From positions 30,671 to 94,670 of the forward strand of contig CAIMEL010000004.1 of the NCBI GenBank assembly GCA_903840015.1: a DNA stretch of 64,000 bases, given 5' to 3'. The translations under genes and the position numbers were made by a program. Shown piece by piece: positions 7,435 to 63,986 of this stretch. Position 1 is the first letter of the stretch; every line of letters starts with the position of its first letter. The notes under the pieces are model-generated. The model did not search any database. It was not told the origin of the DNA and was given only the letters and a program-made list of their open reading frames with translations. This DNA is from an uncultured bacterium. GTDB taxonomy: Bacteria; Patescibacteriota; Dojkabacteria; SC72.

Positions 7435-7512
7435 GGTGGATGTAGCTCAATTGGTTAGAGCATCGGTTTGTGGAACCGAGGGTTGTGGGTTCAAATCCCA
7501 TCTTCCACCCCA
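7435..7512 (+). tRNA. tRNA-His: tRNA-His (anticodon GTG) with genomically encoded G-1 and 3' CCA
   Basis: Cloverleaf: acceptor GTGGATG/CTTCCAC (one U-U mismatch), D arm GCTC..GAGC, anticodon stem TCGGT/ACCGA with loop TTGTGGA (GTG), T arm GTGGG-TTCAAAT-CCCAT. Extra 5' G pairs with discriminator C73; CCA encoded. Confidence 0.85.
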
Positions 7513-7598
7513 GGAAATTTCTATTTGCTGCTAAATATTAAAAATACTTTTTAATTAACACCATTGGTCTTCTTTTATATTAATGGTATCCTTTTGGT

Positions 7599-8084: not shown

Positions 8085-8220
8085 ATCTGAAGATATTCAC
8101 ATACAATATTATTGTATTTTTTATAACCCAAGAATTTAACCATTCCCCAAAATATGTGACATAATCTGATATATATGTATAAACATATTAGATTCTATTT
8201 CTTAATCTACTTTTCATCAG

Positions 8221-20647: not shown

Positions 20648-20989
20648 GTAAAGAGCTATAGTGTTAAAGCCAACCGCACGATTTTGCTGTAGAAGCAAAC
20701 CCTCTTGTGATTTTTGGAGTTACAATAATATCCGATAATATACAGATAAGCTAAAGCTATTGACAAACGTATCTCCTATTTCTAGGATGTATTATTAGGA
20801 TCTTAAAGTCCTAGCAAGTTGGTACCAGGCTTGTTATAGAACCAGTTTTTCTATAGCATCGCTCTTGCGGATTTTAAGGATATGTTGATGATTCGAACAT
20901 TAACAGCTGACGGCTATAGTTTAGACAAAATCTATTCTTTAGTTGCTCAGTTCCAACATGTGTGTAGAAATACATACTCTCCTAGCGTT

Positions 20990-21025
20990 GGGCGGGCACA
21001 TGCTGGTGTACCCGTTCTTTTTTTT
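20990..21025 (+). terminator. rho-independent terminator (GC-rich hairpin GGGCGGGCAC..GTGTACCCG + 8 T) closing a ~380-nt unannotated plus-strand region
   Basis: Hairpin at ~20992-21014 followed by TTTTTTTT (21018-21025); the T-tract overlaps the stop codon of the convergent ddl gene. Confidence 0.6.
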
Positions 21026-22019
21026 ATGACACTCCCTTACTATTTTCTATTATATAATCAAGAAGATTACTGTAAGTCACACCAATATATTCACACTCCT
21101 TTGGTAATAACGAAGTAGCTGTTAATCCTGGTAAAGTGTTTGTCTCTAAATAGTATATCTTTCCGTCTTTATACAAAAAATCCGATCTTGAATATACTTT
21201 ACAACCCAATTTCCTATGTATATCTCTTGCCAATCTAGAGATATCTGAAGATATCTCTTCTGGAATAGAAATTGGTGGTACAATTTCATTCGCTCCATCT
21301 TCAGTATACTTCGAATCATAATCAAAAAAATCAGATTTCTTTGGTTTAATCTCAATTGGTGGTAAAAGTGTAAACTCTTCATCCACTGATTCCAAAACTC
21401 CACAACTTAATTCAACATTATCTTGGATAGCCTTCTGCACAATGAATTCTGTGTTGAGAGAAAATTCCTTAGAAATAGTCCGCCGTGCAGTTTCAAATTC
21501 TTCATGATTTTTAACAAAGTACAATCCAACACTAGAACCTAATCTATTTGGCTTCAAAACACAAGGGAATTCGACATCATCCATACTCAAATCTTTTGCA
21601 AGAACTAATTTCATTTCGGGAACAACAAGGGAGTCAAATCCAGCAACTATTTTTGAAGACTCATACTTGTTCATACACAATCTACTAGCACCAGAACCAG
21701 AACCTGTAAATCTAACATTATGTTCTTCCAATATCTCTTGCAATTCACCATCCTCCCCAAATTCCCCATGCATAGCTATGAATATCAATGATTCTGCACC
21801 AAGCGAATTAAAAACTTCAGAGAATGGATTTGTACATATTGGACAGAACCTGTAGCTATCCGTCAACGGATCGATAGAATAGTACATTTCCTTGTTGAGA
21901 TAGAGCATATAGATATCATATTTTTCTCTATCTAGATTTTTTACAACATTTCGTGCAGTATTAACTGAAACATCATGCTCAGAAGATGGACCTCCATACA
22001 TTATGTAAACTTTTTGCAT
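21024..22019 (-). CDS. ddl: D-alanine--D-alanine ligase
   Basis: 331 aa; MQKVYIMYGGPSSEHDVS N-terminus and ATP-grasp C-terminal domain typical of Ddl. Confidence 0.85.
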   Translation of the reverse strand: MQKVYIMYGGPSSEHDVSVNTARNVVKNLDREKYDIYMLYLNKEMYYSIDPLTDSYRFCPICTNPFSEVFNSLGAESLIFIAMHGEFGEDGELQEILEEHNVRFTGSGSGASRLCMNKYESSKIVAGFDSLVVPEMKLVLAKDLSMDDVEFPCVLKPNRLGSSVGLYFVKNHEEFETARRTISKEFSLNTEFIVQKAIQDNVELSCGVLESVDEEFTLLPPIEIKPKKSDFFDYDSKYTEDGANEIVPPISIPEEISSDISRLARDIHRKLGCKVYSRSDFLYKDGKIYYLETNTLPGLTATSLLPKECEYIGVTYSNLLDYIIENSKGVS

Positions 22020-25142: not shown

Positions 25143-25667
25143 ATGTTTCTTTCAAACGAGGCGATTAGAAAACACATTGAAGATGGTAAGATCAAAATTA
25201 CAGGAGATCTAACGATAGAAAGTATGGGAATAGGAATAAATCTTGGGAAAGAATTACTCATACCCGTAGAAAACCAAACAGTTGGTTTATCACTCCCTTC
25301 ACAACCTCAATACACCTCTCACAACCTCCTAGAGGCCCCATATACGCTCAAACCAAACGAATTTGTGCTTGGAGCCACAGAGCAGTTAATCTACACATCC
25401 AAGGACATAGCAACAATGCTGGATGGAAGAAGTACACTTGCAAGACTCGGCCTCACGATCCACCTCTCTGCAATGGTTCTAGATGGCGTGCCCTTTAGCA
25501 ATGAAAGTTCAGTACTTGAGATAAAGAATTTGGGAAATTTCAATATAGTTTTAAACTACAAGGATAGAGTAGGGACATATATCTTCGCCCAACTTACAGA
25601 CCCAATTACCGGAGAAAAAGATACAGTATATGCGAATCAAAACGGAGTTACTCCTCCAATTATTTAA
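25143..25667 (+). CDS. dcd: dCTP deaminase (dUTPase superfamily)
   Basis: 174 aa; MFLSNEAIRKHIEDGKIKI N-terminus and GRSTLARLGL core typical of Dcd. Confidence 0.7.
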   Translation: MFLSNEAIRKHIEDGKIKITGDLTIESMGIGINLGKELLIPVENQTVGLSLPSQPQYTSHNLLEAPYTLKPNEFVLGATEQLIYTSKDIATMLDGRSTLARLGLTIHLSAMVLDGVPFSNESSVLEIKNLGNFNIVLNYKDRVGTYIFAQLTDPITGEKDTVYANQNGVTPPII

Positions 25668-26400: not shown

Positions 26401-27576
26401 CTATTCAGCTGTATAGTCGTCAAAATAGCCCTGGATTAAGACAACAGGCGTCCCTTTATCTCCACTTCCACTTGTTAAGTCACATAAACTTCCAAGTAAA
26501 TCAGTTAACTGTCTTGGAGTAGTACCAAAAGATTTCTCAACCTCATAATCCTCATGACCCTTCTCCTTAATCATTCCCTTAACATATTCATTCAAATCTC
26601 CCTCTTTGTTCCAATTCTCTGATACATACTTCAATTTAATCTCCTTCGGTCTTCCACGCAAACCTTCTGTAAAACCAGGAGAGACTACAGGATCAGCAAG
26701 TTCCCAAATTTTACCAACAGGATCTTTAAAAGCACCATCACCATATATCAACACTTCAATATTTTTACCTGTGCTCTTTTTAAGCTTCTTCTGCAATTTT
26801 TCTACGAACTCATTTCCATCTCTAGGAAATAGCTTCAAACGATCTTCTCCTATTTTGTTCGATCCCAACAAACCATACTCCTCATTGTATCCATGCTCCT
26901 TAGATTCCTCATTACAGATATCATCTAAACCAAGAACTTTCTCAGCTCCAGCGTTTGTTAACAATTTCTTTGTTCTAAAACGAGTATGGATATCTGAAAC
27001 TAAGAAATTCTTAGTAAATTTTAGTAGATATGTAGGATCATTTGAAAAATGTATCGTTATATTTCCCTTCCCTAAACTCTTGTAATACTCAACATAGTCA
27101 ACACCGGTAAAGGGATGGACAAAATCATACCCGAAAGTTTCCCTGTACTCTTTCTCCTCAAATGAATCCGAATATGGATTTACACCTAATTCATACATTT
27201 TCTCTTGATCCACTAAGTGATTTCCTACTTCATCCGCAGGAAAACTTAGAAGCAGATGTACATGCTTAAATGCTTTTGCTATACATTCCAGAATCAAAGA
27301 GTATCTATTTCTACTAAGGATAGGGAATACAACACCAATATCATCTGACTTAAATTTATTCTTCAAATCATTTACAACCTCATCCACTGTTACAAAATTA
27401 TTCTGACATATTGCGACTACTGCTTCAGTAATACCAACAACATCTTTTTCTCTGAATTCAAATTTTTCTTCTTTAGAAGCATTTAACAGAGAGTCCTCCA
27501 CCAAGTTAACTAAATCATCTCCCTGTTTGATTATTGGAGTCCTGATACCCCTTACTACTGTTCCAACTCTTCTCAT
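26401..27576 (-). CDS. CofE-like (F420-0:gamma-glutamyl ligase fold) protein
   Basis: 391 aa; N-terminal PIIKQGDDL and C-terminal GTTPRQLTDLLGSLCDLTSGSGDKGTPVVLIQG closely match the CofE/FbiB ligase family signatures. Confidence 0.55.
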   Translation of the reverse strand: MRRVGTVVRGIRTPIIKQGDDLVNLVEDSLLNASKEEKFEFREKDVVGITEAVVAICQNNFVTVDEVVNDLKNKFKSDDIGVVFPILSRNRYSLILECIAKAFKHVHLLLSFPADEVGNHLVDQEKMYELGVNPYSDSFEEKEYRETFGYDFVHPFTGVDYVEYYKSLGKGNITIHFSNDPTYLLKFTKNFLVSDIHTRFRTKKLLTNAGAEKVLGLDDICNEESKEHGYNEEYGLLGSNKIGEDRLKLFPRDGNEFVEKLQKKLKKSTGKNIEVLIYGDGAFKDPVGKIWELADPVVSPGFTEGLRGRPKEIKLKYVSENWNKEGDLNEYVKGMIKEKGHEDYEVEKSFGTTPRQLTDLLGSLCDLTSGSGDKGTPVVLIQGYFDDYTAE

Positions 27577-32965: not shown

Positions 32966-33976
32966 ATGATTTCAAAAAACTCCATCTCCATACTTGCCTG
33001 TCAATCTGGTAAACCACTTGCAAAGAAAATTGTAAAAAAACTCTCTCCTAAAACAAAAAACGGTATCAATCTCATAGATTCAACACAGACAATATTTGCT
33101 AACACTGAAATAAAGAATGTTGTAAATGAAAGCATTAGAGGAAGAGACGTATACATCATTCAAGATGTAGAAAATCACAGTGATGGCCTATCCGTTGATG
33201 AAAACCTTCGTTCACTTTACACAACCATAGATGCCTGTAGAAGATGTGATGCTGGAAGAATAACTATTGTAATACCATCATACCCATATGCAAGACAAGA
33301 CAAACAAGATGGAAGAGACGGAATAACTGCAGCAAGAGTTGCTTGGGAGTTAGAGGGAGAGATGGGTGCTGATCATATCATTACAATGGATTTACACAAC
33401 TCCGCTATTCAAGGATTTTTCAGAAGAGCAAAGATAGATAATATTAGAGGAGGGTTTGTATTAATTCCTCATCTAAGAAAACTCATTACAAATCCTGCAG
33501 AAACAGTCATTATGCCTACTGACTTGGGAGGAGCAAAAAGAGCTAACTATTTTGCCCAATCACTCTGTACAGGTATAGCATTTGCTTACAAAGAGAGAAA
33601 TTACAGTAAAGCCAATTGTGTAGAAAGTATTCAGATACTTGGTGATATTAAAGACAAAGATGTATTCATCATAGATGACATGATTGATACAGGTGGAACT
33701 CTAATGCGAGCTGTTTTACGAGCTAAAGAAATGGGTGCTAAGAATATATATGCAGTATGTACTCTAGCTCTTCTGAATGGTAATGCCATACAAGATTTCT
33801 CAAAGCTATACAATGACAAAATCATAGATACAGTCATTGGTACTGATGCAACATATCACTCCAAAGAGTTTCTGAAAGAAAACAAATGGTTTAAAGAGCT
33901 TTCAATTGCTGAATATATTGCAGAGATAATATTTCGTATTCACAAGGGCAAATCAATTGGTGATTTGTTAAAATAG
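32966..33976 (+). CDS. prs: ribose-phosphate pyrophosphokinase (PRPP synthetase)
   Basis: 336 aa; DLHNSAIQGFF and PRPP-binding IIDDMIDTGGTL motifs. Confidence 0.85.
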   Translation: MISKNSISILACQSGKPLAKKIVKKLSPKTKNGINLIDSTQTIFANTEIKNVVNESIRGRDVYIIQDVENHSDGLSVDENLRSLYTTIDACRRCDAGRITIVIPSYPYARQDKQDGRDGITAARVAWELEGEMGADHIITMDLHNSAIQGFFRRAKIDNIRGGFVLIPHLRKLITNPAETVIMPTDLGGAKRANYFAQSLCTGIAFAYKERNYSKANCVESIQILGDIKDKDVFIIDDMIDTGGTLMRAVLRAKEMGAKNIYAVCTLALLNGNAIQDFSKLYNDKIIDTVIGTDATYHSKEFLKENKWFKELSIAEYIAEIIFRIHKGKSIGDLLK

Positions 33977-38077: not shown

Positions 38078-38479
38078 ATGGAAAGAAAAGGAATCATAGG
38101 TCTAGCTGTTTTACTCTTACTTCTAGTTGTAATCGGTGCTGTTGTGTATCAAGTTGTTCTTGGCGATAATACAAAAAAAGATGACGACACATCTCTAGGA
38201 GAACCACATACACTTACTGAAGAAAACTTTGTGTTTGAATATACATATAAAGGGGATAATTTATGGTCATATACAGTAAAAGGTAATTTGCCAACTCCCT
38301 GTTACTCCATCAATACAGATGCTGTCGTTATGGAGAGCTTCCCTGAGCAAGTTATTGTAACATCACGGATTACTCCCCCTGCAAAGGATGTTATGTGTGC
38401 CCAAGTTATACAAGAAGTTAACGAGGTTGGAGAATTTAATGCGAGTGAGAAAGCAACTGTTAGCTTTAATGTTGAATAA
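38078..38479 (+). CDS. membrane-anchored hypothetical protein
   Basis: 133 aa; N-terminal TM (IIGLAVLLLLLVVIGAVVY), then a soluble domain with 2 Cys. Confidence 0.45.
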   Translation: MERKGIIGLAVLLLLLVVIGAVVYQVVLGDNTKKDDDTSLGEPHTLTEENFVFEYTYKGDNLWSYTVKGNLPTPCYSINTDAVVMESFPEQVIVTSRITPPAKDVMCAQVIQEVNEVGEFNASEKATVSFNVE

Positions 38480-38536
38480 ATCCTTGACATTCTTTTTGTA
38501 AATGCTACCATATACCCACACCTGAGGTAGGGGTAT

Positions 38537-38938
38537 ATGAAAAACAAACTTCTAACAATTGGAGCTATCGTAGTAAGCATCTTACTCATTGTTGCGGTGA
38601 TAATACTTAAGCAGCAATCTTCGGAAGAAGATGCATCTGGTTTAAAAATATCTCAGAATGTGAGTATCGTAGACGGTACTCAAATCATCGATATTGATGT
38701 CCGAAGTGGTTACTACGCTCCTAGACTCACATATGCAAACAAAGATTTGCCAACAAAACTTAGGATGAACTCTGTTGATTCATACGGATGTGAAAGAGCA
38801 TTCAGAATTCCAAGCTTAAATATTTCTTCAGAATTACCCCCAGATGGTTTAACAGAATTTGAACTTGGCACTCCTACAAAATCCATACTTGGGACATGCA
38901 GTATGGGAATGTATACCTTTTTAATCAAATTCATATGA
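38537..38938 (+). CDS. membrane-anchored cupredoxin-like domain protein (copper-operon associated)
   Basis: 133 aa; N-terminal TM; C-terminal C....C/M pattern (GCERAF...GTCSMGMYTFLIKF) resembling cupredoxin_1-type domains that accompany CopA; stop overlaps copA start (ATGA). Confidence 0.5.
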   Translation: MKNKLLTIGAIVVSILLIVAVIILKQQSSEEDASGLKISQNVSIVDGTQIIDIDVRSGYYAPRLTYANKDLPTKLRMNSVDSYGCERAFRIPSLNISSELPPDGLTEFELGTPTKSILGTCSMGMYTFLIKFI

Positions 38939-41103
38939 GCACAATTAAATACGAAGCAAAAATAGGCGGAATGCATTGTACTGCTTGCGCACTTAATATA
39001 GAGGATCAATTACAAGCGTTGGAAGGGATACAAAAGGTATCTGTAAATTACGCCTCAAGCAAACTGCATTTAGAATATGATGATAGCTTAGTAAATCTCT
39101 CAGATATCAAAAAGAGAGTAGAGCAAACTGGGTATTCCATAGTAGATAAAGATTCTGAAGAAAACAAATCGGAGAAATCAAAGTTAATATTTATACTCCC
39201 CATTTCTTTCGGGCTCTTCTTCCTGATGCTACTAGAACTTCTTTTGGGTCATATTGAAATTATGTATATGGAAGGATTGTTATTCATCTTTTCTACGATT
39301 ACCATGTTTTGGATTGGACAACCCTTTCTAAAAGGCATTTGGCGATTCTTAACAGGGAAAGGTGCAGATATGGACACATTAGTTGGGATTGGGACATTAA
39401 CAGCATATCTTTACAGTACAGTTATACTTTTAATCGAAACTTTACAAATAGAACTACCTCTTGAAAGTGCACTTTACTACGAAGCCCTAATTGTAGTTAT
39501 TGGCTTTGTAATCCTTGGGAAGCATCTTGAAAGTAATTCCCGAAAGAACACAGGCGATGCTATTCAAAGTCTCATAAAATTACAAGCCAAAAGTGCAATA
39601 GTGGAGAGAGACGGGCAAGAGATAGAGATAGCAACAGAAGATATTGCACTGGGGGATATTCTAATCATAAAACCTGGTTCACAGATTCCAACAGATGGAA
39701 TCATTACAGAAGGGGAGGCAGTGATAGATGAATCTATGATTACAGGAGAGTATCTACCTGTGCCTAAGAGCGTAAGTGAAGAAGTCATTGGAGGCACTAT
39801 CAATCAACAAGGATATCTTAAAATACAAGCAACAAAGGTTGGCAGAGAAACAATGCTATATCGGATCATACAACTTGTTGAGGAAGCTCAAAGTTCCAAA
39901 GCTCCAATCCAGAAACTGGTTGACAAAATCTCCCGAGTATTTGTTCCTACAGTTCTGTCACTAGCCGTCCTATCTTTCTTAATATGGGCAATAAGTGGAA
40001 ACATACCATATGGCATTTCATCCTTTGTTGCTACACTCGTTATAGCATGCCCCTGCGCATTAGGATTAGCTACCCCCACAGCAATAATTGTTGGTGTTGG
40101 CAAGGCAGCGAAGTTGGGAATTTTGATAAAAGATGCAGAGAAATTACAGAAACTAAGTTCGGTTTCTTGTGTCGTTTTTGATAAGACAGGAACTCTAACT
40201 TTAGGGAAACCGACAATTTCAGATATCTCCTCGAAAGGAGATGAAAACAAAATGTTACAAATAGCCTATTCATTAGCAAGCAAATCACAACATCCATTAA
40301 GCCTCGCAATTGCAAATGAAGCTGAGCAGAAAAAGCTAACCAAGCTCATGGTACAAGACTTTGTTAATGTTGATGGGAAAGGGCTTACAGGGAAGATTAA
40401 CAAGAAGAGATATTACCTCGGGAGTGAAAACTATATGAAAGACTTGAATATCAAATCGTCTTTTCAGATAAAAAGCAGCAATAGCTCTACAGTAATGTTA
40501 AGTGATGAGCAGGAGGTTCTAGGAGTAATGTATATATCAGATGAATTGAAGAGTGAAGCTCTCATCACAATTAAGAAATTGCAAGATCTTAATATACAGA
40601 CAGTATTACTTTCTGGAGATACGAAGAGAAATGTCGAAGATATTGCTAAGAGATTAAATATTAAGAAAATATATTCAGGGATACTACCAACAGACAAAGC
40701 TAAAATAATCGGAGATCTCAAGAAAACACATAAAGTAGCAATGGTCGGAGATGGAATCAATGATGCCCCTGCATTAGCATTGGCAGATGTAGGGATAGCG
40801 ATGGCAACAGGTACAGAAATTGCAATTAAAACATCAGATATTACACTTCTTGGCGGGAATATCTCCAAGATTCCTTCTGCAATAATACTCTCAAAACAAA
40901 TTATCAAAACAATAAGGGAGAATCTTTTCTGGGCATTCATATACAATACTCTCGGCATTCCAATCGCAATGGGAGTTCTTTTTCCAATATGGGGCATTTT
41001 GTTAAATCCAGCCTTTGCTGGTATTGCAATGTCGTTGAGCAGTATATCTGTGGTGCTTAACTCTCTAAGACTTAAGATTAGTAGAATCTCAGATGAAATC
41101 TAA
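38935..41103 (+). CDS. copA: copper-translocating P1B-type ATPase
   Basis: N-terminal HMA domain GMHCTACA; CPC ion-transduction motif (ACPCALGLATP); DKTGTLT phosphorylation site; GDGINDAP hinge. Start taken at ATG 38935 (MSTIKYEAKIGG), downstream of the ORF-track start 38896. Confidence 0.9.
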   Translation: MSTIKYEAKIGGMHCTACALNIEDQLQALEGIQKVSVNYASSKLHLEYDDSLVNLSDIKKRVEQTGYSIVDKDSEENKSEKSKLIFILPISFGLFFLMLLELLLGHIEIMYMEGLLFIFSTITMFWIGQPFLKGIWRFLTGKGADMDTLVGIGTLTAYLYSTVILLIETLQIELPLESALYYEALIVVIGFVILGKHLESNSRKNTGDAIQSLIKLQAKSAIVERDGQEIEIATEDIALGDILIIKPGSQIPTDGIITEGEAVIDESMITGEYLPVPKSVSEEVIGGTINQQGYLKIQATKVGRETMLYRIIQLVEEAQSSKAPIQKLVDKISRVFVPTVLSLAVLSFLIWAISGNIPYGISSFVATLVIACPCALGLATPTAIIVGVGKAAKLGILIKDAEKLQKLSSVSCVVFDKTGTLTLGKPTISDISSKGDENKMLQIAYSLASKSQHPLSLAIANEAEQKKLTKLMVQDFVNVDGKGLTGKINKKRYYLGSENYMKDLNIKSSFQIKSSNSSTVMLSDEQEVLGVMYISDELKSEALITIKKLQDLNIQTVLLSGDTKRNVEDIAKRLNIKKIYSGILPTDKAKIIGDLKKTHKVAMVGDGINDAPALALADVGIAMATGTEIAIKTSDITLLGGNISKIPSAIILSKQIIKTIRENLFWAFIYNTLGIPIAMGVLFPIWGILLNPAFAGIAMSLSSISVVLNSLRLKISRISDEI

Positions 41104-42070
41104 AAAAATATATATAAAAGGAATGCATTGTCCATCATGCGAAATATATATTGAGAAAGAATTAAAAAATATTCCAGAAATTAAAGCTATTAAAAGTAAC
41201 CACATTGAACAAAGTGTTACTTTCGAATCTGAAATAGCAGAGCATACAGTAATTGACCGAATCAATCCAATGATAAAGGGAAATGGGTATTTTGCTCAAA
41301 CTGATGCTCCAAAGAAAAGTGTAAACATAAGAGAGTTGGCATTTTCTTTTTTAATAGCATTGGGAATTTTCTTACTCTTCATTCTTCTACAAAAAGCACG
41401 AATCCTTCCTGAAGTCACAATGAAACAAAATACACTAGGAATGGCATTTACACTAGGTCTTACTGCTTCGATATCATCATGTATGGTAGTAGTAGGAGGA
41501 TTGATACTTTCGCTTTCAGCCACTTACAAAAAAGTTTCTTCCCTCGCATATTTTCATTTTGCCAGAATCATATCGTTCTTCCTCCTTGGAGGAGTGTTAG
41601 GACTTGTAGGACAAATATTCACATTTGGGAAAAGTTTTAACTTCATCACTGGCATAATACTCTTTGTAGTTATGACACTAATGGGAATGAATCTATTGGA
41701 AATATTTCCCATATTCAAGAAGATACAGATAAAGCTTCCGAAGACACTTGTCGGAGAGAAAATGACAAATGTTTCCTCACCAATATTACTTGGGATTTTG
41801 ACTTTCTTTCTACCTTGCGGGTTCACCCAATCAATGCAAATAGTTGCTATGAGTACTGCCAATTTTAAGGATGCTGCACTCATTATGTTGATATTCTCTC
41901 TTGGAACTTTCCCTGTACTGGCTCTTCTTTCATTTGGAGTAAAGTCTATTCGCAACAGGTTCAAATCTGCTCTTTTCCTTAAAACTGTCGGATTCTTGGT
42001 ATTAATGTTTGCAGTATACAACCTAGTGTCATTATTGATTTCTGTTGGTATAATTACTTTTATATATTAA
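41093..42070 (+). CDS. HMA-domain fused to polytopic permease-like membrane domain (DsbD_2/TauE-SafE-like); probable metal-handling membrane protein
   Basis: 325 aa; N-terminal GMHCPSCE heavy-metal-associated domain; about 7 TM helices with FLPCG motif; overlaps copA stop by 11 nt. Confidence 0.5.
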   Translation: MKSKKIYIKGMHCPSCEIYIEKELKNIPEIKAIKSNHIEQSVTFESEIAEHTVIDRINPMIKGNGYFAQTDAPKKSVNIRELAFSFLIALGIFLLFILLQKARILPEVTMKQNTLGMAFTLGLTASISSCMVVVGGLILSLSATYKKVSSLAYFHFARIISFFLLGGVLGLVGQIFTFGKSFNFITGIILFVVMTLMGMNLLEIFPIFKKIQIKLPKTLVGEKMTNVSSPILLGILTFFLPCGFTQSMQIVAMSTANFKDAALIMLIFSLGTFPVLALLSFGVKSIRNRFKSALFLKTVGFLVLMFAVYNLVSLLISVGIITFIY

Positions 42071-42081
42071 CCCCTTTAAAT

Positions 42082-42348
42082 ATGGATAAAAGCACAGCTT
42101 TAACAAATTTTAAGAAAGTTCGAACTCTTCTCGACAAAGTAATCGACATGGTTGAGAAGGACGGATATTGTATTGATATAATGCAACAAAACTTAGCTGC
42201 AATAGGGATGTTGAAATCTGCTCATCAATCCTTGATGGAGGGCCATCTTCATCATTGCTTTACGAAAGCAATAACATCAAAACAAGAGAAAAGGAAGAAG
42301 GAGATGATCGAAGAGATTTTGAAGGTAACTAAACTAGCAAACAAGTAG
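42082..42348 (+). CDS. csoR: CsoR/RcnR-family metal-sensing transcriptional repressor
   Basis: 88 aa; YCIDI....Q..A......H....HHC signature matching copper-sensing CsoR (Cys-His-Cys ligand set). Confidence 0.8.
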
Positions 42349-42349
42349 A

Positions 42350-43516
42350 ATGGAAAAGATTGTTTTCTTTGACAATTCAGCAACAACCCCAATATCAGAG
42401 AAGGTGCTAGAGGCTATGATGCCTTACCTTACATCTAGTTATGGGAATGCATCAAGTATCTACTCATTGGGAAGGGATAGTCGCAAAGCTATAGACAAGG
42501 CAAGAGACCAAGTTGCGAAAGCTCTTAATGGTGATTCAAAAGAAATATATTTTACGAATTCTGGTACAGAATCTGACAACTGGGCAATTAAAGGTGTGGC
42601 ATATGCAAACAAAGACAAGGGAAAACATATAATAACCTCAAGTATTGAGCATCATGCAGTGTTGCATACCTGTAAACATCTTGAGAAGCAGGGTTTTGAG
42701 GTTACATATTTACCAGTTAACAAAAATGGACTGGTTGAAATAAAAGATTTAATTGAAGCTATTAGACCAGACACTATCTTAATTTCCATAATGTATGCAA
42801 ATAATGAGATTGGTACAGTACAACCAATTGAAGAGATAGGTGAAATTGCAAAAGAAAAAAATATATATTTTCATACAGATGCTGTTCAGGCAATAGGTAA
42901 TATCGATATTGATCTTCAGAAACTTAATATTGATCTGCTATCCCTCTCTGGCCACAAATTTAATGGACCAAAAGGAATAGGGGCTTTGTATATTAAGAAT
43001 GGAACAAAGGTAGAAAATCTGCTACATGGTGGAAGTCAAGAGAAAGGTAAGAGACCTAGTACAGAAAATGTTGCTGGGATTGTTGGTCTTGGGAAAGCAA
43101 TTGAGCTCGCAACTAAAGATATAGCAAAGAAAGAAAAGTATCTAAAGAATCTTAGGGAGTATGCAATTGAAAATCTCTTAAAGATTCCACATACTATTCT
43201 GAATGGTGACAGAGAAAGGCGATTACCTGGGAATGTAAATGTATGTTTCGAATACATTGAAGGAGAATCGATTCTTCTAATGTTAGATCAACACAATATT
43301 TGTGCTTCAAGTGGTTCTGCATGCACTTCAGGATCCTTAGATCCTTCTCATGTACTCTTAGCAATTGGCTTACCTCACGAGATAGCTCATGGGTCTTTAA
43401 GGCTTACTTTTTCAGAAAGAAACACAAAAGAAGAGATAGATTATCTCCTCAATCTTTTGCCAGCTATAATTCAAAGATTAAGAGATATGTCCCCTTTATA
43501 TAACCAAGCAAAATAA
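42350..43516 (+). CDS. iscS: cysteine desulfurase (NifS/IscS type, class V aminotransferase)
   Basis: 388 aa; PLP-lysine motif [17 protein letters not shown]; active-site Cys loop [10 protein letters not shown]. Confidence 0.9.
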
Positions 43517-47859: not shown

Positions 47860-48168
47860 ATGCAAAAGAAACTATATAGATCCGAGAAAAACAAGATAAT
47901 CGGTGGCGTATGTGGTGGTTTAGCTGAATATTTTGATATAGATCCTTCCATAGTGAGAATCGTTTTTGCTTTAGCTTTTTTTACAGAAGGATTTGGACTC
48001 TTACTTTACATAATACTTTGGATAATACTTCCTACCTCTTCTAGTATTGAAAAAGAATCAGGTGAGATCATAGAAGAAAACAAGGAAGAGATAAAGACAA
48101 AAGTAACAGAAGTAGCACGAAATATAAAAACAGAAGTGAAGACAGATACTAAGAGTAAGAAGAAATAA
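47860..48168 (+). CDS. pspC: PspC-domain (phage-shock protein C-like) membrane protein
   Basis: 102 aa; diagnostic LYRS..NK.I.GVCGGLAEYF.IDP..VRI.F PspC motif followed by a TM helix. Confidence 0.85.
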   Translation: MQKKLYRSEKNKIIGGVCGGLAEYFDIDPSIVRIVFALAFFTEGFGLLLYIILWIILPTSSSIEKESGEIIEENKEEIKTKVTEVARNIKTEVKTDTKSKKK

Positions 48169-48184: not shown

Positions 48185-49174
48185 ATGAAAAGTAATAAAG
48201 ATTTCGGAGGAGCTGTTTTCCTAATATTTTTAGGAACTATCTTCCTTTTAAATACAACAGGAACAGTTGGATGGGGCATATGGGAGTATATCCTAGCCTT
48301 TTGGCCAATATTAATAGTTCTGATGGGATTGAAATTAATAATAGGGGAAAGTTTAATTGCAAGAATAATCCTAGGAATAATTTCTTTAATTGTATATACC
48401 TCTATTGGATTCATATCTTTCTATTCATATTCAAAAACAAACTCAGAGGTATTTCCATATGACATAATCAGAAATGTGGGAAAACACTATGACTTTAATG
48501 TTAATCGAGATTACAAAGAGGAAGAAACTATCATTAAAGAAGTTGACCACTTAGGAATTGAGAAAAGGAATCTCAATATAGATGTTGGTGCTTCCAAATT
48601 TACACTAGTGGAAGATAAAGAACTCTCTGACTATTTAAAACTGCAATCAAAATATGTACCTGGATACATTGAACCAAATTTGACAGCCAATGATTCTGAA
48701 AAAGAACTCACCATCTCTTTCAGAACTGAAACTCAAAGAAAAATGTTCCGATTTTGGAATGACATATCATCAACCTTTGATTTGACGATTGGGTTACCAA
48801 ATATTTTAACATCTTTAGATATAGACCTTGGAGCTGGAGAGGGAGACATAACTTTGAACAGAACACTCTTAGATACTGTTACTGTAAAGGTAGGCGCTGG
48901 AGACTTAGATATCTCACTTTTAGATTTCTCTGTGCCAAAGACAATTGACTTAAGCATAGGAGCAGCAAGTGTAAATCTTACAATCCCCAAAGATATTGGA
49001 TATGAGTTAACATACACCTTAGGAGTTGGTGATATTACAGAAAATGGGAAATCCATAGCTTCCTTTGTATCCAAAGAGGACACTTACAAATCTTCAAACT
49101 ATGATTCTGCCAAAAAGAAACTTTCAATAACTACAGATGTAGGTGTTGGTTCTTTAAATATTGTAACTAAATAA
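48185..49174 (+). CDS. LiaF-like membrane protein (cell-envelope stress module; DUF2154/DUF4097-like C-terminal beta-helix)
   Basis: 329 aa; N-terminal multi-TM W-rich region paralogous to the next gene; C-terminal repeats ..DIDLGAGEGDITL...VKVGAGDLDISL...VGVGSLNIV. Confidence 0.55.
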   Translation: MKSNKDFGGAVFLIFLGTIFLLNTTGTVGWGIWEYILAFWPILIVLMGLKLIIGESLIARIILGIISLIVYTSIGFISFYSYSKTNSEVFPYDIIRNVGKHYDFNVNRDYKEEETIIKEVDHLGIEKRNLNIDVGASKFTLVEDKELSDYLKLQSKYVPGYIEPNLTANDSEKELTISFRTETQRKMFRFWNDISSTFDLTIGLPNILTSLDIDLGAGEGDITLNRTLLDTVTVKVGAGDLDISLLDFSVPKTIDLSIGAASVNLTIPKDIGYELTYTLGVGDITENGKSIASFVSKEDTYKSSNYDSAKKKLSITTDVGVGSLNIVTK

Positions 49175-49190: not shown

Positions 49191-49859
49191 ATGAAAGTAT
49201 CAAATAAAATGATTTTTGGGGTAATACTAGTAGTCATTGGACTCTTACTCTTCATTGATCGAACCGGAGTATTGACCTTTAACTTTTGGTCCTCCATCTG
49301 GACCTTTTGGCCATTAATACTAGTATTCTTAGGTATAAAACTTTTCTTTGAGAACAAGATCCCAGGAGCAATTATCTTAACTACTTTAGGTACTGTTCTT
49401 TTCTTAACAAATGTCTTTGATTGGAATTTCTTTGCAATACTTTGGCCATTAGCCATTATTGCAATTGGTATATCAGTACTATTTAAAGAAGAAGACTTTA
49501 AGGTTAATAACTCTAGTACCAAAGGCAATGAAGAGAAGATTGACGATACAGCAATATTCTGGGGTGTAGAAAAGAAGAATATTTCCAAAGATTTCAAGGG
49601 AGGCGAAGTAAATGCAATTTTTGGTGGATATGAATTAGATCTACGAGAAAGCAAAGTAAGTAAAGAGGGAGCAAAATTATCAGTCAATGCGATATTTGGT
49701 GGAGTAGAGGTTTCTGTCCCAAAGGATTGCAGAGTTATTACAAACGGAACGGGAATTCTTGGAGGATGGAGTTCTACCGTAAAACCTAATGATTTAAAAA
49801 CTCCCGTATTAGAGATAACTGGAAGTGCAATTTTTGGTGGAGTTGAGATAAAAGAATAG
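49191..49859 (+). CDS. LiaF-like membrane protein (paralog of upstream gene)
   Basis: 222 aa; N-terminal 4-TM region; C-terminal repeated AIFGG.E(L/V) pattern typical of the LiaF C-terminal domain. Confidence 0.6.
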   Translation: MKVSNKMIFGVILVVIGLLLFIDRTGVLTFNFWSSIWTFWPLILVFLGIKLFFENKIPGAIILTTLGTVLFLTNVFDWNFFAILWPLAIIAIGISVLFKEEDFKVNNSSTKGNEEKIDDTAIFWGVEKKNISKDFKGGEVNAIFGGYELDLRESKVSKEGAKLSVNAIFGGVEVSVPKDCRVITNGTGILGGWSSTVKPNDLKTPVLEITGSAIFGGVEIKE

Positions 49860-49906: not shown

Positions 49907-51379
49907 GTGATGCAAAAAGAATATCTTTTTCTTGGTGATGATAGTGTAAATAATGGCAGATATATGCTTGCGGTATATAGAATTATTCCTGCCGATGGAT
50001 TGACCTTAGAAGATGTTGCAACTGAGGTTGCTGCAGAATCTTCTACAGGAACAAGTATAAAGGTTGGTTCTGCAACAGAGTTTTCTCTCAGTAATAATGC
50101 AAAGGTCTACAAGATAGATGAAGAAAAAAATCTCGTATGGATTGCTTACCCATGGGAGATTTTCGATACAGGAGGTAACATACAAAATATTCTAACCTAT
50201 GTTGCAGGTAATATTTTAGGAGTAAGCGAAGTTAAAGCATGCAAACTACTTGATGTTCACTTTCCTCCAGAGATGCTAGTTAGATACGATGGACCAAGCT
50301 ATACCATCGACGATATGAGAGCATACTTAAATGTTTGGGATTCTCCAATACTAGGTTCCATCATAAAACCAAAGATTGGTTTAACTCCTGCGCAGTATGC
50401 TGAACTAGCATACGATTTCTGGGTAGGTGGAGGACACTTTGTGAAGAATGATGAACCTCAATCCGATCAATCTTTCTGTAACTATGAATTAATGGTCAAA
50501 TCAATTAGGATTGCTATGGACAGAGCAGAACAGGAAACAGGTCATACTAAAGTACATTCCTTTAACGTTTCAGCAGCTGATTTTGACACCATGCTCCACA
50601 GAGCAGACTTTGTAGCTGCAAATATGAAGCCTGGAAGCTATGCATATTTAATAGATGGTATAACTGCTGGTTGGATGGCGGTACAAACACTAAGAAGAAG
50701 ATATCCAAATACATTCATACATTTCCACAGAGCAGGACACGGCGCATACACAAGAATGGAAAACCCAATAGGGTACACAGTTGAAACTCTTACAAAATTT
50801 GCCCGTCTAGCAGGTGCCTCTGGTATACATACAGGTACTGCAGGTGTTGGGAAAATGTCAGGAGACTCTAGGACAGATATAACGGCAGCTCATCATGGAC
50901 TAAGATTAAAATCATCTGGAGAATTTTTCGATCAGGCTTGGAGTAAAATCTCTGAGAAAGATGCAGATATTGCCAGTATGATTCAGAAAGAGGAAGAGAA
51001 ATGGGATGGAGATTGTAGAGGATTCTTGGAAGAGAGAGTAGCGAAGAAGGCTGAATTCACATACAAATCTGATACTTCAAGAGTCATACTAAAAACTGCA
51101 CCAATTATTTCAGGTGGCCTAAACCCAACACTCTTAGACGACTTCCTCAATGTTATGGGCACAATTGATTTCATAACTACAATGGGAGCAGGAGTACACT
51201 CACATCCAATGGGAACCAAGGCAGGTGCGAAGGCAGTATTACAAGCATACGAAGCATGGAAGAAGGGTGTTACTATCCAAGAGTATTCGAAAGATTTCCA
51301 GGAATTAGCTATTGCTATAGATTTCTTTGAGAAAAACAAAACCAATACACACAAACTAAAAGGTTACGAACAGGTTTAG
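49907..51379 (+). CDS. rbcL: ribulose-1,5-bisphosphate carboxylase/oxygenase large-subunit homolog (form II/III or III type)
   Basis: 490 aa; RuBisCO active-site motifs KPKIGL, GGHFVKNDE (carbamylated Lys region), HFHRAGHG, GGL..; no small-subunit gene adjacent. Confidence 0.9.
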   Translation: MMQKEYLFLGDDSVNNGRYMLAVYRIIPADGLTLEDVATEVAAESSTGTSIKVGSATEFSLSNNAKVYKIDEEKNLVWIAYPWEIFDTGGNIQNILTYVAGNILGVSEVKACKLLDVHFPPEMLVRYDGPSYTIDDMRAYLNVWDSPILGSIIKPKIGLTPAQYAELAYDFWVGGGHFVKNDEPQSDQSFCNYELMVKSIRIAMDRAEQETGHTKVHSFNVSAADFDTMLHRADFVAANMKPGSYAYLIDGITAGWMAVQTLRRRYPNTFIHFHRAGHGAYTRMENPIGYTVETLTKFARLAGASGIHTGTAGVGKMSGDSRTDITAAHHGLRLKSSGEFFDQAWSKISEKDADIASMIQKEEEKWDGDCRGFLEERVAKKAEFTYKSDTSRVILKTAPIISGGLNPTLLDDFLNVMGTIDFITTMGAGVHSHPMGTKAGAKAVLQAYEAWKKGVTIQEYSKDFQELAIAIDFFEKNKTNTHKLKGYEQV

Positions 51380-51434: not shown

Positions 51435-53330
51435 ATGTCTAATTCCCAAGTAGAACAACAAAACTTAAGAAATATCGCCATTATTGCCCATGTTGACCAC
51501 GGTAAAACAACCTTGGTTGATGCTTTCATGAAACAGACCAATCTTTTCAGAGAGAATCAAGATGAAATGAATCAAGAAAGAATTCTTGATGTTGGAGAAT
51601 TAGAGAAAGAGAAAGGAATCACTATTAATGCGAAGAATATCTCCATAAGGTACAAGGGTGTAAAGATAAATATCATAGATACTCCCGGACACGCTGATTT
51701 TGGTGGAGAAGTTGAAAGAACTTTAAATATGGCGGATAGCTGTTTGCTTCTAGTGGATGCAAAAGAAGGAACAATGCCACAAACAAAGTTTGTTCTCAAA
51801 AAGGCTTTGGAGCTAGGCTTAAAACCAGTTGTAGTAGTAAACAAAATAGACAAAAAATTAGCAAATATTAAGAAAACCATATCAAAGATTCAAGATCTTT
51901 TCTTAGCACTTGCAACAGACACCTCTCAATTAGACTTCCCTATATTCTATGGAATCTCACGAGAAGGGAAAATATGGAAAGAAATACCACAAGGTGATCT
52001 AACTATACCTAACAGTACAGAGGGAGATCTTCTCCCAATACTTGATGAAATAGTAGAGAACTTGCCATCTCCGAAGGGAGATCCGAATGGACCATTCCAA
52101 ATGCAAATAACATCGGTGGAATACAATGAACATCTTGGGAGATATCTCATCGGAAAAATCTCACGCGGAACTTTAAAAGTAGATGATCCAATCATCTTAC
52201 TTTCAGAGAAAGAAGGATTTGAAAAGAAACAGGGTAGAGTAAGGGAAATTTTCTTGAAAGAAGGACTTCAGTGGGAGAAACAAAATTCAGCTAGTGTTGG
52301 TGAAATAATTGCTCTTACAGGTATAGATTCTACAGATATCGGAGCAACAATATGTGGATTAGAGAACCCTGAAGCATTACCTGAGATCAAAATTACACCT
52401 CCTTCAGTTAGAGTAAAGTTTTCTGCTAACACATCACCATTTGTTGGGAAGGAAGGTAAGTTAGTTACTGCAAAGCAATTACAACAAAGATTGGAACAAG
52501 AAAAAAATTTGAATATTAGTCTTAAAATTACAAATACAGGTAGTAACAATTATTATGTCTCAGGAAGGGGAGAGCTTCAACTTGCGATATTGATTGAGCA
52601 ATTACGCAGAGAGGGATATGAGTTTGAACTTGGTAAACCAGAGGTTATTCTACAGGAAAGAGAAGGGAAAAGGTGTGAACCATTAGAAGAGCTTACTATT
52701 GATGCTCCAGATGAATATATGAGCACTATCACACAAGAAGTTAACGAAAGAAAAGGTAAACTGATTAATATTGAAACGGAGGAAGGACAAACAAGATTTA
52801 CTTTCAATATACTTACCAGAAATCTCATAGGTCTTCATCGAGTATTAATGAATGCTACAAAAGGGACAGCAATTATAAATAGCTTCATTGTCGACTATAT
52901 TCCTTACGAGAAAAGTGATGAGCTTTTCCGAAAAGGAGTAATAATATCATCTGAGACAGGTACTGCCCTAGCATACTCATTAATGAGCATACAAGACAGA
53001 GGAAGACTATTTATTGAAGGATCCACTGCTGTATATGAAGGAATGATAATTGGAATTAATAATCATGAGAGTGACTTAGAGGTTAATCCTTGTAAAGCAA
53101 GACACAAAACGAATGTGAGGATGTCACATGCCGAAGTAACTGAGATTGCCCTTAAGGCACCAATACAGCTAACCATAGAATATGCTCTTTCTTTCATCAG
53201 AAGTGATGAATTGATTGAGGTTACACCTAAGAATGTCAGACTAAGAAAGAAGCTTTTAACAGCAACACAGAGGACTTGGTCAAAGAGAAAAAATCTGACA
53301 GAGTACGCAAAGGAACACTTGGAGGGATAA
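51435..53330 (+). CDS. typA: translational GTPase TypA/BipA
   Basis: 631 aa; G-domain AHVDHGKTTLVD, DTPGHADF, NKID; EF-G-like domains and BipA C-terminal domain. Confidence 0.9.
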   Translation: MSNSQVEQQNLRNIAIIAHVDHGKTTLVDAFMKQTNLFRENQDEMNQERILDVGELEKEKGITINAKNISIRYKGVKINIIDTPGHADFGGEVERTLNMADSCLLLVDAKEGTMPQTKFVLKKALELGLKPVVVVNKIDKKLANIKKTISKIQDLFLALATDTSQLDFPIFYGISREGKIWKEIPQGDLTIPNSTEGDLLPILDEIVENLPSPKGDPNGPFQMQITSVEYNEHLGRYLIGKISRGTLKVDDPIILLSEKEGFEKKQGRVREIFLKEGLQWEKQNSASVGEIIALTGIDSTDIGATICGLENPEALPEIKITPPSVRVKFSANTSPFVGKEGKLVTAKQLQQRLEQEKNLNISLKITNTGSNNYYVSGRGELQLAILIEQLRREGYEFELGKPEVILQEREGKRCEPLEELTIDAPDEYMSTITQEVNERKGKLINIETEEGQTRFTFNILTRNLIGLHRVLMNATKGTAIINSFIVDYIPYEKSDELFRKGVIISSETGTALAYSLMSIQDRGRLFIEGSTAVYEGMIIGINNHESDLEVNPCKARHKTNVRMSHAEVTEIALKAPIQLTIEYALSFIRSDELIEVTPKNVRLRKKLLTATQRTWSKRKNLTEYAKEHLEG

Positions 53331-53355
53331 TCCTTAAGTCTATATAAAAAGAAAA

Positions 53356-53378
53356 GGGAGTACTTAGTACTCCCTTTT
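53356..53378. terminator. bidirectional rho-independent terminator (GGGAGTAC-TTA-GTACTCCC flanked by A-tract and T-tract)
   Basis: 8-bp perfect stem with TTTT downstream on plus and AAAAAGAAAAG upstream; sits between convergent typA (+) and RRM gene (-). Confidence 0.7.
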
Positions 53379-59743: not shown

Positions 59744-59826
59744 GCCAGGATGGTGAAATGGCAGACACGCTACGTTCAGAACGTAGTCCTAGCAATAGGG
59801 TGGGGGTTCAACTCCCCCTCTTGGCA
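59744..59826 (+). tRNA. tRNA-Leu: tRNA-Leu (anticodon CAG), class II long variable arm; CCA not encoded
   Basis: Acceptor GCCAGGA/TCTTGGC, 3-bp D stem, anticodon stem CTACG/CGTAG with loop TTCAGAA, long variable arm, T arm GGGGG-TTCAACT-CCCCC, discriminator A. Confidence 0.85.
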
Positions 59827-62281: not shown

Positions 62282-62386
62282 AGTTAAGAATTAACACTTT
62301 ATATACTTATACAGAATACTATTTCCTAAAGAAAAATACAAAATACTTTGAATTTCTTGTATACTGTAGGATCAAGTACTGCCCAT

Positions 62387-63781
62387 ATGAATAACCTTGC
62401 AAAAACAAAGATTGTAGCAACAATAGGACCATCCTCTTGGGATGAAACTGTCCTAAGAAATATGCATCGTAATGGTATGCAACTAGCACGTATTAATGCT
62501 TCATTTGCAGATTTTGAAGAATTAGATAGAGTCGCATCCCTTATTCGAAAAATATCACCCCGTATATCTTTAATCCTAGACACACAAGGGACTAAGATAC
62601 GAGTAAAAGCATTAGAGAAGGAGATTGAGGTAAAGGACAGCTTAGTTATATCTTCGAATGAGCAAAGCCAAGGTATCAAAATTACATACCCGAATCTACA
62701 TAAACACCTTAATATTGGAAATCAAATTCTACTCGATGATGGCAATATAGAGCTTAAGGTTACCGCTATAGAAGGTGAGGATATAGTATGTGAAGTTATA
62801 CAGGGAGGAATCCTAAAACCTAATAAAACAGTAAACATACCCTCAATGAATTTGGTTTTCCCAACTTTAACAGAGAAAGACAAAGAAGACATTGGCAATG
62901 CAATGAAACTAGGGTATGACTTTGTATGTCTTTCCTTTGTAAGAGATAAGAATGACGTCCTTGCAGTAAAGGAGCTTCTAGAGGATTCTTCCATAAAGAT
63001 AATTTCTAAAATCGAGAATCAACTTGGATTAGATTCCTTTGATGAGATATTAAAGGTCAGTGATGCCATTATGATTGCACGAGGTGATCTTGGAGTAGAG
63101 ACACCTTTAGAAGATGTACCCATACTACAAAAAAGAATGATCTATCAATGTCGTGCAGCAGGGAAACCAGTGATTGTTGCTACACAAATGTTAGAATCCA
63201 TGAGAGAAACTATTCGACCCACAAGGGCAGAGGTTTCGGATGTTGCTAATGCAGTTATGGATGGTGCAGATGCATTAATGCTTTCAGCAGAAACATCTAC
63301 AGGTAAAAACCCAGTACAAGCGGTAGAGTATATGAACAGAATTGCTTTAAAAGCTGAGAGTGTCATGCAATTATCACCAATATATGGAAATACTGAGGCC
63401 GGGATAGAAAGCGATGCTATTGCGAAAAATGCTTGCTTCCTTACACAAAATCTAGATATTAACAGCATCATTGTACTCTCTGAATCTAGTGCAACTGTAG
63501 GGAGTGTAACAAGACATAGACCAAACGTGCCTATATATTCTGTAAGTTCTTCAATCAAGAAAGTTAAACAACATAATCTTTACAAAGGCGTTAAGACTTT
63601 CTATATTGAACAATTAGCAGATGACAGAGATCAAGCAATAGCCCAAGCTGTTGAAACAATCTATACGCATGGGGAGTTGGATTTACGTGATAAAATTGCT
63701 ATTATTACCGGTAGTTCAATCAAAGATTGTACCTCTGACAGTATACTAGAGATAGTAACAGTTAAAGACATTCTAGATTAA
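62387..63781 (+). CDS. pyk: pyruvate kinase
   Basis: Start at ATG 62387 (MNNLAKTKIVATIGPS) gives the canonical PK N-terminus; ORF track's upstream start (62348) adds 13 non-conserved residues; GDLGVE, MLSAETS..GK motifs present. Confidence 0.9.
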   Translation: MNNLAKTKIVATIGPSSWDETVLRNMHRNGMQLARINASFADFEELDRVASLIRKISPRISLILDTQGTKIRVKALEKEIEVKDSLVISSNEQSQGIKITYPNLHKHLNIGNQILLDDGNIELKVTAIEGEDIVCEVIQGGILKPNKTVNIPSMNLVFPTLTEKDKEDIGNAMKLGYDFVCLSFVRDKNDVLAVKELLEDSSIKIISKIENQLGLDSFDEILKVSDAIMIARGDLGVETPLEDVPILQKRMIYQCRAAGKPVIVATQMLESMRETIRPTRAEVSDVANAVMDGADALMLSAETSTGKNPVQAVEYMNRIALKAESVMQLSPIYGNTEAGIESDAIAKNACFLTQNLDINSIIVLSESSATVGSVTRHRPNVPIYSVSSSIKKVKQHNLYKGVKTFYIEQLADDRDQAIAQAVETIYTHGELDLRDKIAIITGSSIKDCTSDSILEIVTVKDILD

Positions 63782-63784
63782 ACC

Positions 63785-63860
63785 GGTGACGTAGCCAAGT
63801 TGGTTAAGGCCGTGGTCTGCAAAACCACTATCACGGGTTCGAATCCCGTCGTCACCTCCA
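63785..63860 (+). tRNA. tRNA-Cys: tRNA-Cys (anticodon GCA), CCA encoded
   Basis: Acceptor GGTGACG/CGTCACC, anticodon stem GTGGT/ACCAC with loop CTGCAAA, T arm ACGGG-TTCGAAT-CCCGT, discriminator U, CCA. Confidence 0.85.
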
Positions 63861-63902: not shown

Positions 63903-63986
63903 GCCGGGATGGCGGAACAGGCAGACGCGCGGGACTTAAAATCCCGTTCTAGAAATAGAGTGAGGGTTCGATTCCCTCTTCCGGCA
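63903..63986 (+). tRNA. tRNA-Leu: tRNA-Leu (anticodon TAA), class II; CCA not encoded
   Basis: Acceptor GCCGGGA/TTCCGGC, anticodon stem CGGGA/TCCCG with loop CTTAAAA, long variable arm, T arm GAGGG-TTCGATT-CCCTC, discriminator A. Confidence 0.85.

Follow-up and report, generated by a model that had tools for sequence, protein, structure and literature searches.

In Thermococcus kodakarensis, a form III RuBisCO works with AMP phosphorylase and ribose-1,5-bisphosphate (R15P) isomerase and carries out the last step of AMP/nucleotide salvage, which yields 3-phosphoglycerate (3-PGA); this AMP pathway system was reportedly described by Sato in 2007 and by Aono in 2015. Form II enzymes, such as CbbM of Rhodospirillum rubrum and the enzyme of Rhodopseudomonas palustris, work in the Calvin-Benson-Bassham (CBB) cycle with phosphoribulokinase (PRK). 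In the form II/III enzyme of Methanococcoides burtonii, a Rubisco assembly domain (RAD) sits between L2 dimers and acts like a built-in small subunit (Gunn 2017, PMC5399129). Nucleotide salvage is the accepted reading of the role of the form II/III clade in candidate phyla radiation (CPR) bacteria (Wrighton 2016, PMC5113843; Jaffe 2019, PMC6389311), and activity has been demonstrated for one form II/III enzyme from Peregrinibacteria (Wrighton 2016, PMC5113843). Here we describe a RuBisCO large-subunit gene, rbcL, in a stretch of 64,000 nucleotides of contig CAIMEL010000004.1 (assembly GCA_903840015.1) from an uncultured bacterium. This whole stretch is called the window, and all positions refer to it. 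The product of the gene is assigned to form II/III and carries a RAD; most likely, with a probability of about 0.8, it performs the last step of an archaeal-type AMP salvage pathway. The interpretation given in a preliminary description of the locus is thereby supported overall, with the pathway role in this particular genome being drawn from the literature on the clade. CPR form II/III RuBisCOs, their occurrence in Dojkabacteria, the long insertion and the salvage reading have all been published, and since such biology has been in print since 2012-2016, the gene itself changes nothing in it.

The RuBisCO gene and its assignment to form II/III

The open reading frame (ORF) at 49907-51379 on the + strand is uninterrupted and opens with GTG-ATG. 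The gene and the parts of its product that are referred to below are:

49910..51379, + strand: rbcL, RuBisCO large subunit form II/III, 489 aa (ORF, Pfam, NCBIfam, PDB phmmer)
50444..50446, + strand: codon of K179, the carbamylated active-site lysine (alignment to references; invariant in 75 of 75 homologs)
50942..51100, + strand: RAD, the form II/III-specific insertion, residues 345-397 (alignment, insertion lengths, AlphaFold2 model)

The preliminary description had reported a 490-aa product with intact motifs. The ORF and the motifs were borne out, but the length was not: 490 aa would result from GTG 49907 as an alternative start, whereas every public gene call of the identical protein starts at ATG 49910 and gives 489 aa. 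Because these calls agree, residues are numbered throughout on the 489-aa product. The identical product is present in NCBI, ENA and Logan, and the same species, at 96-100% nucleotide identity, was found in at least 11 independent public samples, in which the ORF is intact and near-invariant. Both domains of the RuBisCO superfamily pair are present in the protein, the N-terminal alpha/beta domain (RuBisCO_large_N, PF02788, 3.6e-28) and the C-terminal TIM barrel (RuBisCO_large, PF00016, 6.4e-83). Judged by its sequence, the product is a bona fide RuBisCO large subunit, and standard annotation would give the gene its correct name.

To assign the form, the protein was compared by phmmer with all PDB chains. 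The highest scores were obtained with the form II/III structures 9DYP (707 bits), 8VGS (decameric, from Ca. Methanofastidiosum; 637 bits) and 5MAC (M. burtonii, the first structure of this form; 626 bits), followed by form II (R. palustris, R. rubrum) at ~285-311 bits, form III (T. kodakarensis) at ~215 bits and form I at ~155-180 bits. The NCBIfam form II-type equivalog NF010002 was passed with 528.7 bits (cutoff 489), and the type III model TIGR03326 was not (328.7 bits against a cutoff of 497.45). A neighbour-joining tree was built on an alignment that combined the 120 best matches from the database with 79 RuBisCO ORFs of GTDB representatives, three sequences from the PDB and three references, of which R. 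rubrum CbbM and T. kodakarensis RbcL proved 100% identical to PDB 9RUB and 1GEH. In this tree, the window protein is nested within a 197-leaf form II/III clade that includes 5MAC, 8VGS, 9DYP and the RuBisCO of the Dojkabacteria genome WS6-1, and there it falls in a bacterial (CPR) subclade with 9DYP and WS6-1. R. rubrum form II is the sister group, and T. kodakarensis form III lies further out. Identities to the window protein follow the same order, with ~65-66% for 9DYP, 64-66% for WS6-1, 60-63% for the archaeal form II/III structures, 39% for form II, 34% for form III and 33% for form I. The closest RuBisCO in the scan of GTDB representative genomes is 74% identical, and the nearest named homologs among the matches listed are from Candidatus Dojkabacteria, Microgenomates and Patescibacteria.

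An AlphaFold2 (AF2) monomer model built on a 75-sequence alignment reached a mean predicted local distance difference test score (pLDDT) of 88.8 and a predicted template modelling score (pTM) of 0.90. Loop 6 (residues 311-317) is of low confidence in the model; this loop is mobile, and low confidence is expected there. In a Foldseek search against the PDB, the model matched 9DYR, 9DYP, 5MAC and 8VGS best (TM 0.88-0.90), with form II structures next. Of form III and form II/III, the two possibilities raised in the preliminary description, the second agrees with the PDB scores, with the tree and with the insertion described below, and the first is given up with the TIGR03326 score below cutoff. 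Taken together, the comparisons firmly indicate a form II/III RuBisCO and not a form III. The form II enzymes of R. rubrum and R. palustris resemble it in fold, in active-site pattern and in passing NF010002; they differ in the low identity and in having no RAD.

Among described systems, the enzyme of WS6_GWF2_39_15 ('WS6-1'; L012; Wrighton 2016) is from the same phylum-level lineage, has the same form and the same insertion position, comes close to the window protein in its length (486 against 489 aa) and insertion (48 against 46 aa), and likewise has neither a small subunit nor a CBB context. It differs from the window protein in identity, in belonging to another long-insert subclade of the tree and in its gene neighbourhood. 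The best solved relative is 9DYP/9DYR, which is a form II/III enzyme of the CPR type and shares the active-site and RAD lock residues; its own RAD has 29 aa, and the window protein is 17 residues longer there. These two entries are titled 'Rubisco from Methanococcoides burtonii', but the chain is identical at 460 of 460 positions to the RuBisCO of WS6 bacterium GW2011_GWC2_36_7 (L015:5882-7261) and clearly unlike the M. burtonii structure 5MAC. Since the chain has this sequence, the structure of a form II/III enzyme from Dojkabacteria, its RAD being 29 aa long, appears to have been solved already. A literature search found no paper describing 9DYP or 8VGS.

Active-site residues

All 21 active-site positions examined by alignment to references fit the form II/II-III pattern. 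The numbering of the spinach reference reproduces all known active-site residues. The carbamylated lysine K179 corresponds to K201 of spinach, K191 of R. rubrum and K193 of M. burtonii. The other positions, with spinach numbering in brackets, are E43, T48 and N101 (E60, T65, N123); K153 and K155 (K175, K177); D181 and E182 (D203, E204); H273, R274 and H277 (H294, R295, H298); H307 (H327); K315 in loop 6 (K334); S401, G402 and G403 (S379, G380, G381); and G426 (G403). With form II the window protein shares a form II-type pattern of I at spinach position 173 and M at position 335. The motifs quoted in the preliminary description, namely K153-P154-K155, VKNDE with the carbamylation lysine K179, and HFHRAGH at 271-277, were all recovered. 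Across the 75 homologs, the listed active-site positions are invariant, as are 110 alignment columns in total.

Orphan rbcL homologs are sometimes RuBisCO-like proteins (RLPs), and this general point is all that favours the view that the gene encodes a form IV RLP or a decayed copy that does not carry out carboxylation. We consider such a product extremely unlikely. The catalytic and substrate-binding residues are all intact, the NCBIfam RLP models score only 80-156 bits against cutoffs of 409-700, and the ORF is preserved in the independent samples mentioned above, together with the invariant columns among its homologs. The preliminary description had named placement in form IV and loss of active-site residues as the findings that would speak against it; here the residues are present and the RLP models stay below their cutoffs, and form IV is excluded because the active-site positions are conserved and do not vary among the 75 homologs. 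From these residues, the enzyme would be catalytically competent, and we infer carboxylase activity.

The Rubisco assembly domain

A form II/III-specific insertion, which the preliminary description had suggested looking for, is present. Between W344 and P398 the window protein has 53 residues, compared with 7 in R. rubrum, which corresponds to an insertion of 46 aa. Its site is the exact position of the 29-aa RAD in M. burtonii, between helix alpha6 and strand beta7. The RAD of the window protein thus exceeds that of the solved structures by 17 aa, and the extra residues follow the RAD helix. In the AF2 model, two RAD helices are seen at 352-366 and 369-382, with a mean pLDDT of 83-95 in blocks of 10 residues; the 17 extra residues are predicted to form the second of these, giving a two-helix hairpin where the RAD of the solved form II/III enzymes has a single helix.

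In M. burtonii, a Mg2+ lock is formed by D366 and D368 of the RAD together with E179 and D183, which the adjoining dimer contributes from its helix alpha1 (Gunn 2017, PMC5399129). The equivalents in the window protein are D351 and D353 in the RAD and E165 and D169 in helix alpha1. Among the 75 homologs, E165, D169 and D351 are conserved in all 75 and D353 in 71. R391, which corresponds to R389 of M. burtonii, is invariant in the homologs. Of the contacts that the C-terminal RAD loop makes in M. burtonii, several are not kept: W388 is replaced by S390, and D385 and S387 are without clear equivalents. As in other members of the family, L2 dimers would be expected to assemble via the RAD.

The archaeal enzymes of M. 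burtonii (5MAC) and Ca. Methanofastidiosum (8VGS/9B6L) are like the window protein in form, in the alpha6-beta7 location of the RAD and in the conserved Mg2+ lock ligands; both are decameric in crystals or by cryo-EM. They are unlike it in identity and in their 29-aa RAD.

A long insertion variant was already reported in Dojkabacteria in 2016 (Wrighton 2016, PMC5113843). Of the 127 distinct form II/III sequences from bacteria in our sample, 96 have insertions of 40-57 aa, and these are spread across several groups of the tree. In the archaeal-type clade, which contains 5MAC and 8VGS, all 70 sequences have an insertion of 28-29 aa. A RAD of 29 aa is common to all solved form II/III structures, with 9DYP from Dojkabacteria among them, and none carries a long one. 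This is the structural point that the gene touches: the long RAD, with 44-49 aa, dominates the sampled CPR homologs, yet the solved structures are all short. It is conceivable, although we regard it as doubtful, that the long RAD gives a quaternary assembly or a trigger different from the Mg2+/substrate-locked decamer of M. burtonii. Such an assembly could, for example, have another ring size or consist of constitutive oligomers.

Proposed role in AMP salvage

In the proposed pathway, AMP would be converted to ribose-1,5-bisphosphate by AMP phosphorylase, and R15P isomerase would turn this into ribulose-1,5-bisphosphate (RuBP). RuBisCO would then combine RuBP with CO2 and H2O to give two molecules of 3-PGA, which would pass through lower glycolysis with pyruvate kinase to pyruvate/2-oxoacid:ferredoxin oxidoreductase (POR) and ADP-forming acetyl-CoA synthetase, yielding ATP and acetate. 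The T. kodakarensis system resembles this proposal in its role. It differs in that its RuBisCO is of another form, and its partner enzymes were not found around the window gene. Window genes that bear on the supply of RuBP and the use of 3-PGA are:

32966-33976, + strand: ribose-phosphate diphosphokinase (phosphoribosyl pyrophosphate (PRPP) synthetase) (Pfam; TIGR01251, 277.6 bits against a cutoff of 113)
62348..63781, + strand: pyruvate kinase (Pfam PK and PK_C)

All 67 non-overlapping ORFs of the window were scanned with Pfam, and exact-protein look-ups added flanks of ~10 kb on the left and ~8 kb on the right (~18 kb). With 474 aa in the gene calls, pyruvate kinase probably begins a few codons after 62348. 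The left flank carries genes for CTP synthase, for an ADP-forming acetyl-CoA synthetase of 702 aa and for a POR made up of two subunits (ERZ1426837/ERZ1426820), and these genes indicate an acetate-forming, ATP-yielding fermentation. Enzymes that use 3-PGA are therefore present both in the window (pyruvate kinase) and just outside its left end (POR and ADP-forming acetyl-CoA synthetase). In the window and flanks, neither enolase nor phosphoglycerate mutase was seen.

Among the 67 window ORFs, no Pfam match to a small subunit (RuBisCO_small), PRK or a carboxysome protein was found, in line with the earlier statement that no rbcS, cbb, PRK or carboxysome genes adjoin rbcL. Neither PRK nor transketolase nor any other cbb gene lies in the window or the flanks. 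This result bears on the view that a PRK is encoded elsewhere in the genome, where it would support a CBB-like or reductive hexulose-phosphate-like cycle or would feed RuBisCO from the pentose-phosphate pathway. The enzyme does pass NF010002, an equivalog built on form II-type enzymes, and PRK has been reported from a few Peregrinibacteria with form II/III RuBisCO and from some methanogenic archaea, where it is part of the reductive hexulose-phosphate pathway (Jaffe 2019, PMC6389311). However, the region contains no such genes, no PRK has been reported in Dojkabacteria (Wrighton 2016, PMC5113843; Jaffe 2019, PMC6389311), and the protein is assigned to form II/III and not to form II. A PRK-dependent role therefore seems very unlikely.

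The search for the partners of the AMP pathway also included phmmer and tblastn on 89 fetched loci and a clustering, without prior bias, of the genes next to RuBisCO. As seeds for AMP phosphorylase and R15P isomerase, T. kodakarensis sequences identical to PDB 4GA5 and 3A11 were used; further, unverified seeds were E. coli DeoA, PyNP and eIF2B-alpha. In the window and its flanks, no AMP phosphorylase (Glycos_transf_3 family) and no IF-2B-family isomerase was found, and by Pfam, phmmer and tblastn no CPR relative encodes either enzyme less than 10 kb from RuBisCO. Together with the PRK of some form II/III Peregrinibacteria (Jaffe 2019, PMC6389311), these two negative results weigh against a role in AMP salvage. 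On the other side, homologs of deoA and e2b2 were present in all RuBisCO-bearing CPR genomes examined, including the closed Dojkabacteria genome WS6-1 (Wrighton 2016, PMC5113843), and it is in form III-c that deoA, e2b2 and RuBisCO cluster tightly (Wrighton 2016, PMC5113843; Jaffe 2019, PMC6389311). Since tight clustering is a form III-c trait, the lack of linkage observed here agrees with the published findings. As no partner genes lie in the window or its flanks, we infer the salvage role for this genome from the literature on the clade; the partner enzymes would be encoded elsewhere in the genome, and carbon would flow from AMP towards 3-PGA.

Matches to the partner enzymes were obtained in three loci only, all from DPANN. 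In L060 (1-2735), fragments of AMP phosphorylase and R15P isomerase flank a form II/III RuBisCO. In L028, an AMP phosphorylase gene (20291-21385) lies ~9 kb downstream of RuBisCO, and in L059 an R15P isomerase gene (7499-8374) lies 1.6 kb upstream of it.

RuBP might also be supplied by another route, either derived from PRPP or made by a nucleoside phosphorylase and a ribose-1-phosphate kinase, in which case RuBisCO would still serve pentose/nucleotide salvage. The PRPP synthetase gene of the window, which is located 16 kb upstream of rbcL, could be an upstream supplier of the ribose-phosphate pool, and in five Dojkabacteria-type loci its ortholog directly adjoins RuBisCO. Furthermore, AMP phosphorylase was not found in the window, the flanks or the CPR loci searched, and in earlier work PRPP could not be ruled out as a RuBP source, with the alternative route of Aono 2015 cited there (Wrighton 2016, PMC5113843). 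On the other hand, PRPP synthetase is a housekeeping enzyme of universal occurrence and adjoins RuBisCO in one sublineage only, the deoA and e2b2 homologs accompany RuBisCO in the CPR genomes examined (Wrighton 2016, PMC5113843), and Pfam scans of the window gave no candidate for a nucleoside phosphorylase or a ribose-1-phosphate kinase. We thus regard such a supply as unlikely and favour the AMP phosphorylase route. In the five loci, the PRPP synthetase gene is convergent with RuBisCO and lies ~20 nt past its stop codon (L013:11404-12420, L014:11404-12435, L015:7285-8301, L017:11401-12417 and L018:4414-5301). This arrangement may be a hint of a link from PRPP to RuBP or may be due to chance.

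In the preliminary description, PRPP synthetase, dCTP deaminase and a guanine-deaminase-like gene had been cited as signs of nucleotide scavenging. The PRPP synthetase is confirmed by its TIGR01251 score. For the dCTP deaminase gene (25143-25667), a match to Pfam DCD was obtained, but with the NCBIfam equivalog it reaches 80.4 bits, short of the 92.8 set as cutoff. The third gene (328-765, - strand) does not hold up as guanine-deaminase-like; it encodes a generic CDA-fold deaminase whose best match, TadA, is below cutoff. As support for salvage, this argument is weak because the genes are ordinary nucleotide-biosynthesis or housekeeping genes.

Gene neighbourhood and host lineage

The genes next to rbcL are LiaF-like genes and typA, as described before. 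The neighbourhood comprises:

47860-48168, + strand: PspC-domain protein (Pfam)
48185-49174 and 49191-49859, + strand: two LiaF-like membrane proteins (Pfam)
51435-53330, + strand: TypA/BipA translational GTPase, starting 55 nt after rbcL (Pfam GTP_EFTU and BipA_C)
53352..53378, no strand assigned: palindromic GC-rich hairpin with A and T runs on either side (terminator consensus match only)

No terminator-like site was found between pspC, the liaF-like genes, rbcL and typA. The sole such site of this string of genes is the hairpin after typA, and the counts of such sites are not above shuffled expectation. An operon from pspC through typA is a possibility suggested by the lack of internal terminators. 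Since promoter-like matches were also not above the expectation from shuffled sequences, co-transcription is only possible. The PspC and LiaF genes are therefore given as context that may be co-transcribed, and a functional tie to RuBisCO is not claimed. Rfam gave no riboswitch or other element near the RuBisCO gene.

A protein with 81% identity (P0002, relative L005) is encoded on a 320-kb contig of the Dojkabacteria metagenome-assembled genome GCA_054814005.1, with which gene order is common over ~20 kb. The syntenic block runs from IscS-IscU-MnmA to polysaccharide deacetylase-PspC-LiaF-LiaF-RuBisCO-TypA-RRM protein. The PspC/LiaF/TypA neighbourhood is limited to the window's own lineage; in other Dojkabacteria-type loci (L019-L023), NusA and a 517-aa GTPase are found upstream of RuBisCO. 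Based on the nearest named relatives and this synteny, the host is assigned to a Dojkabacteria lineage of CPR bacteria.

The GC content of rbcL (38%) is slightly higher than that of the window (~34%), and a recent lateral transfer was considered. It is not supported, since typA also has a higher GC content and the 81%-identical relative shows synteny at this locus. In the right flank of ~8 kb, a rubredoxin-like protein, FtsW, MurG, MurA, a Mur ligase, MraZ and RsmH are encoded.

Other features of the window

The stop codons of the 67 ORFs are TAA in 42 cases, TAG in 22 and TGA in 3. An alternative genetic code, suggested by the rarity of TGA, was rejected: table 11 yields dense, full-length ORFs that agree with public gene calls. 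A 116-aa ORF at 7151-7501 (- strand) overlaps tRNA-His at 7436-7512 (+ strand) and is probably spurious. Other tRNA genes are Leu-CAG (59744-59826), Cys (63785-63860) and Leu-TAA (63903-63986).

Two further ORFs have unusual domain contents. Of the [FeFe]-hydrogenase large subunit, the 283-aa ORF at 765-1616 (- strand), which shares one base with the start of the deaminase gene, has only the C-terminal H-cluster domain (Fe_hyd_lg_C, 2e-47). Its scores are far below the NCBIfam hydrogenase cutoffs, and it could be a truncated hydrogenase-like or a Nar1-like protein. In the 391-aa product of 26401-27576 (- strand), the 218-position profile of CofE (F420-0:gamma-glutamyl ligase) is matched end to end by residues 10-383, which implies a large internal insertion; this family is unexpected in a CPR bacterium.

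A glmS ribozyme was detected at 4566-4700 (60.6 bits, with the gathering score at 37), directly 5′ of glmS at 4728-6506. Finally, a copper-resistance cassette of 3.9 kb (38456-42360) is shared with L002 but missing from contig L001, which is 96-97% identical. It consists of a 133-aa ORF, a CopA P-type ATPase (38896-41103), a membrane protein with HMA and DsbD_2 domains (41093-42070) and a CsoR-type repressor (42082-42348), and represents a strain-variable insertion between the region of a major facilitator superfamily (MFS) gene and iscS.

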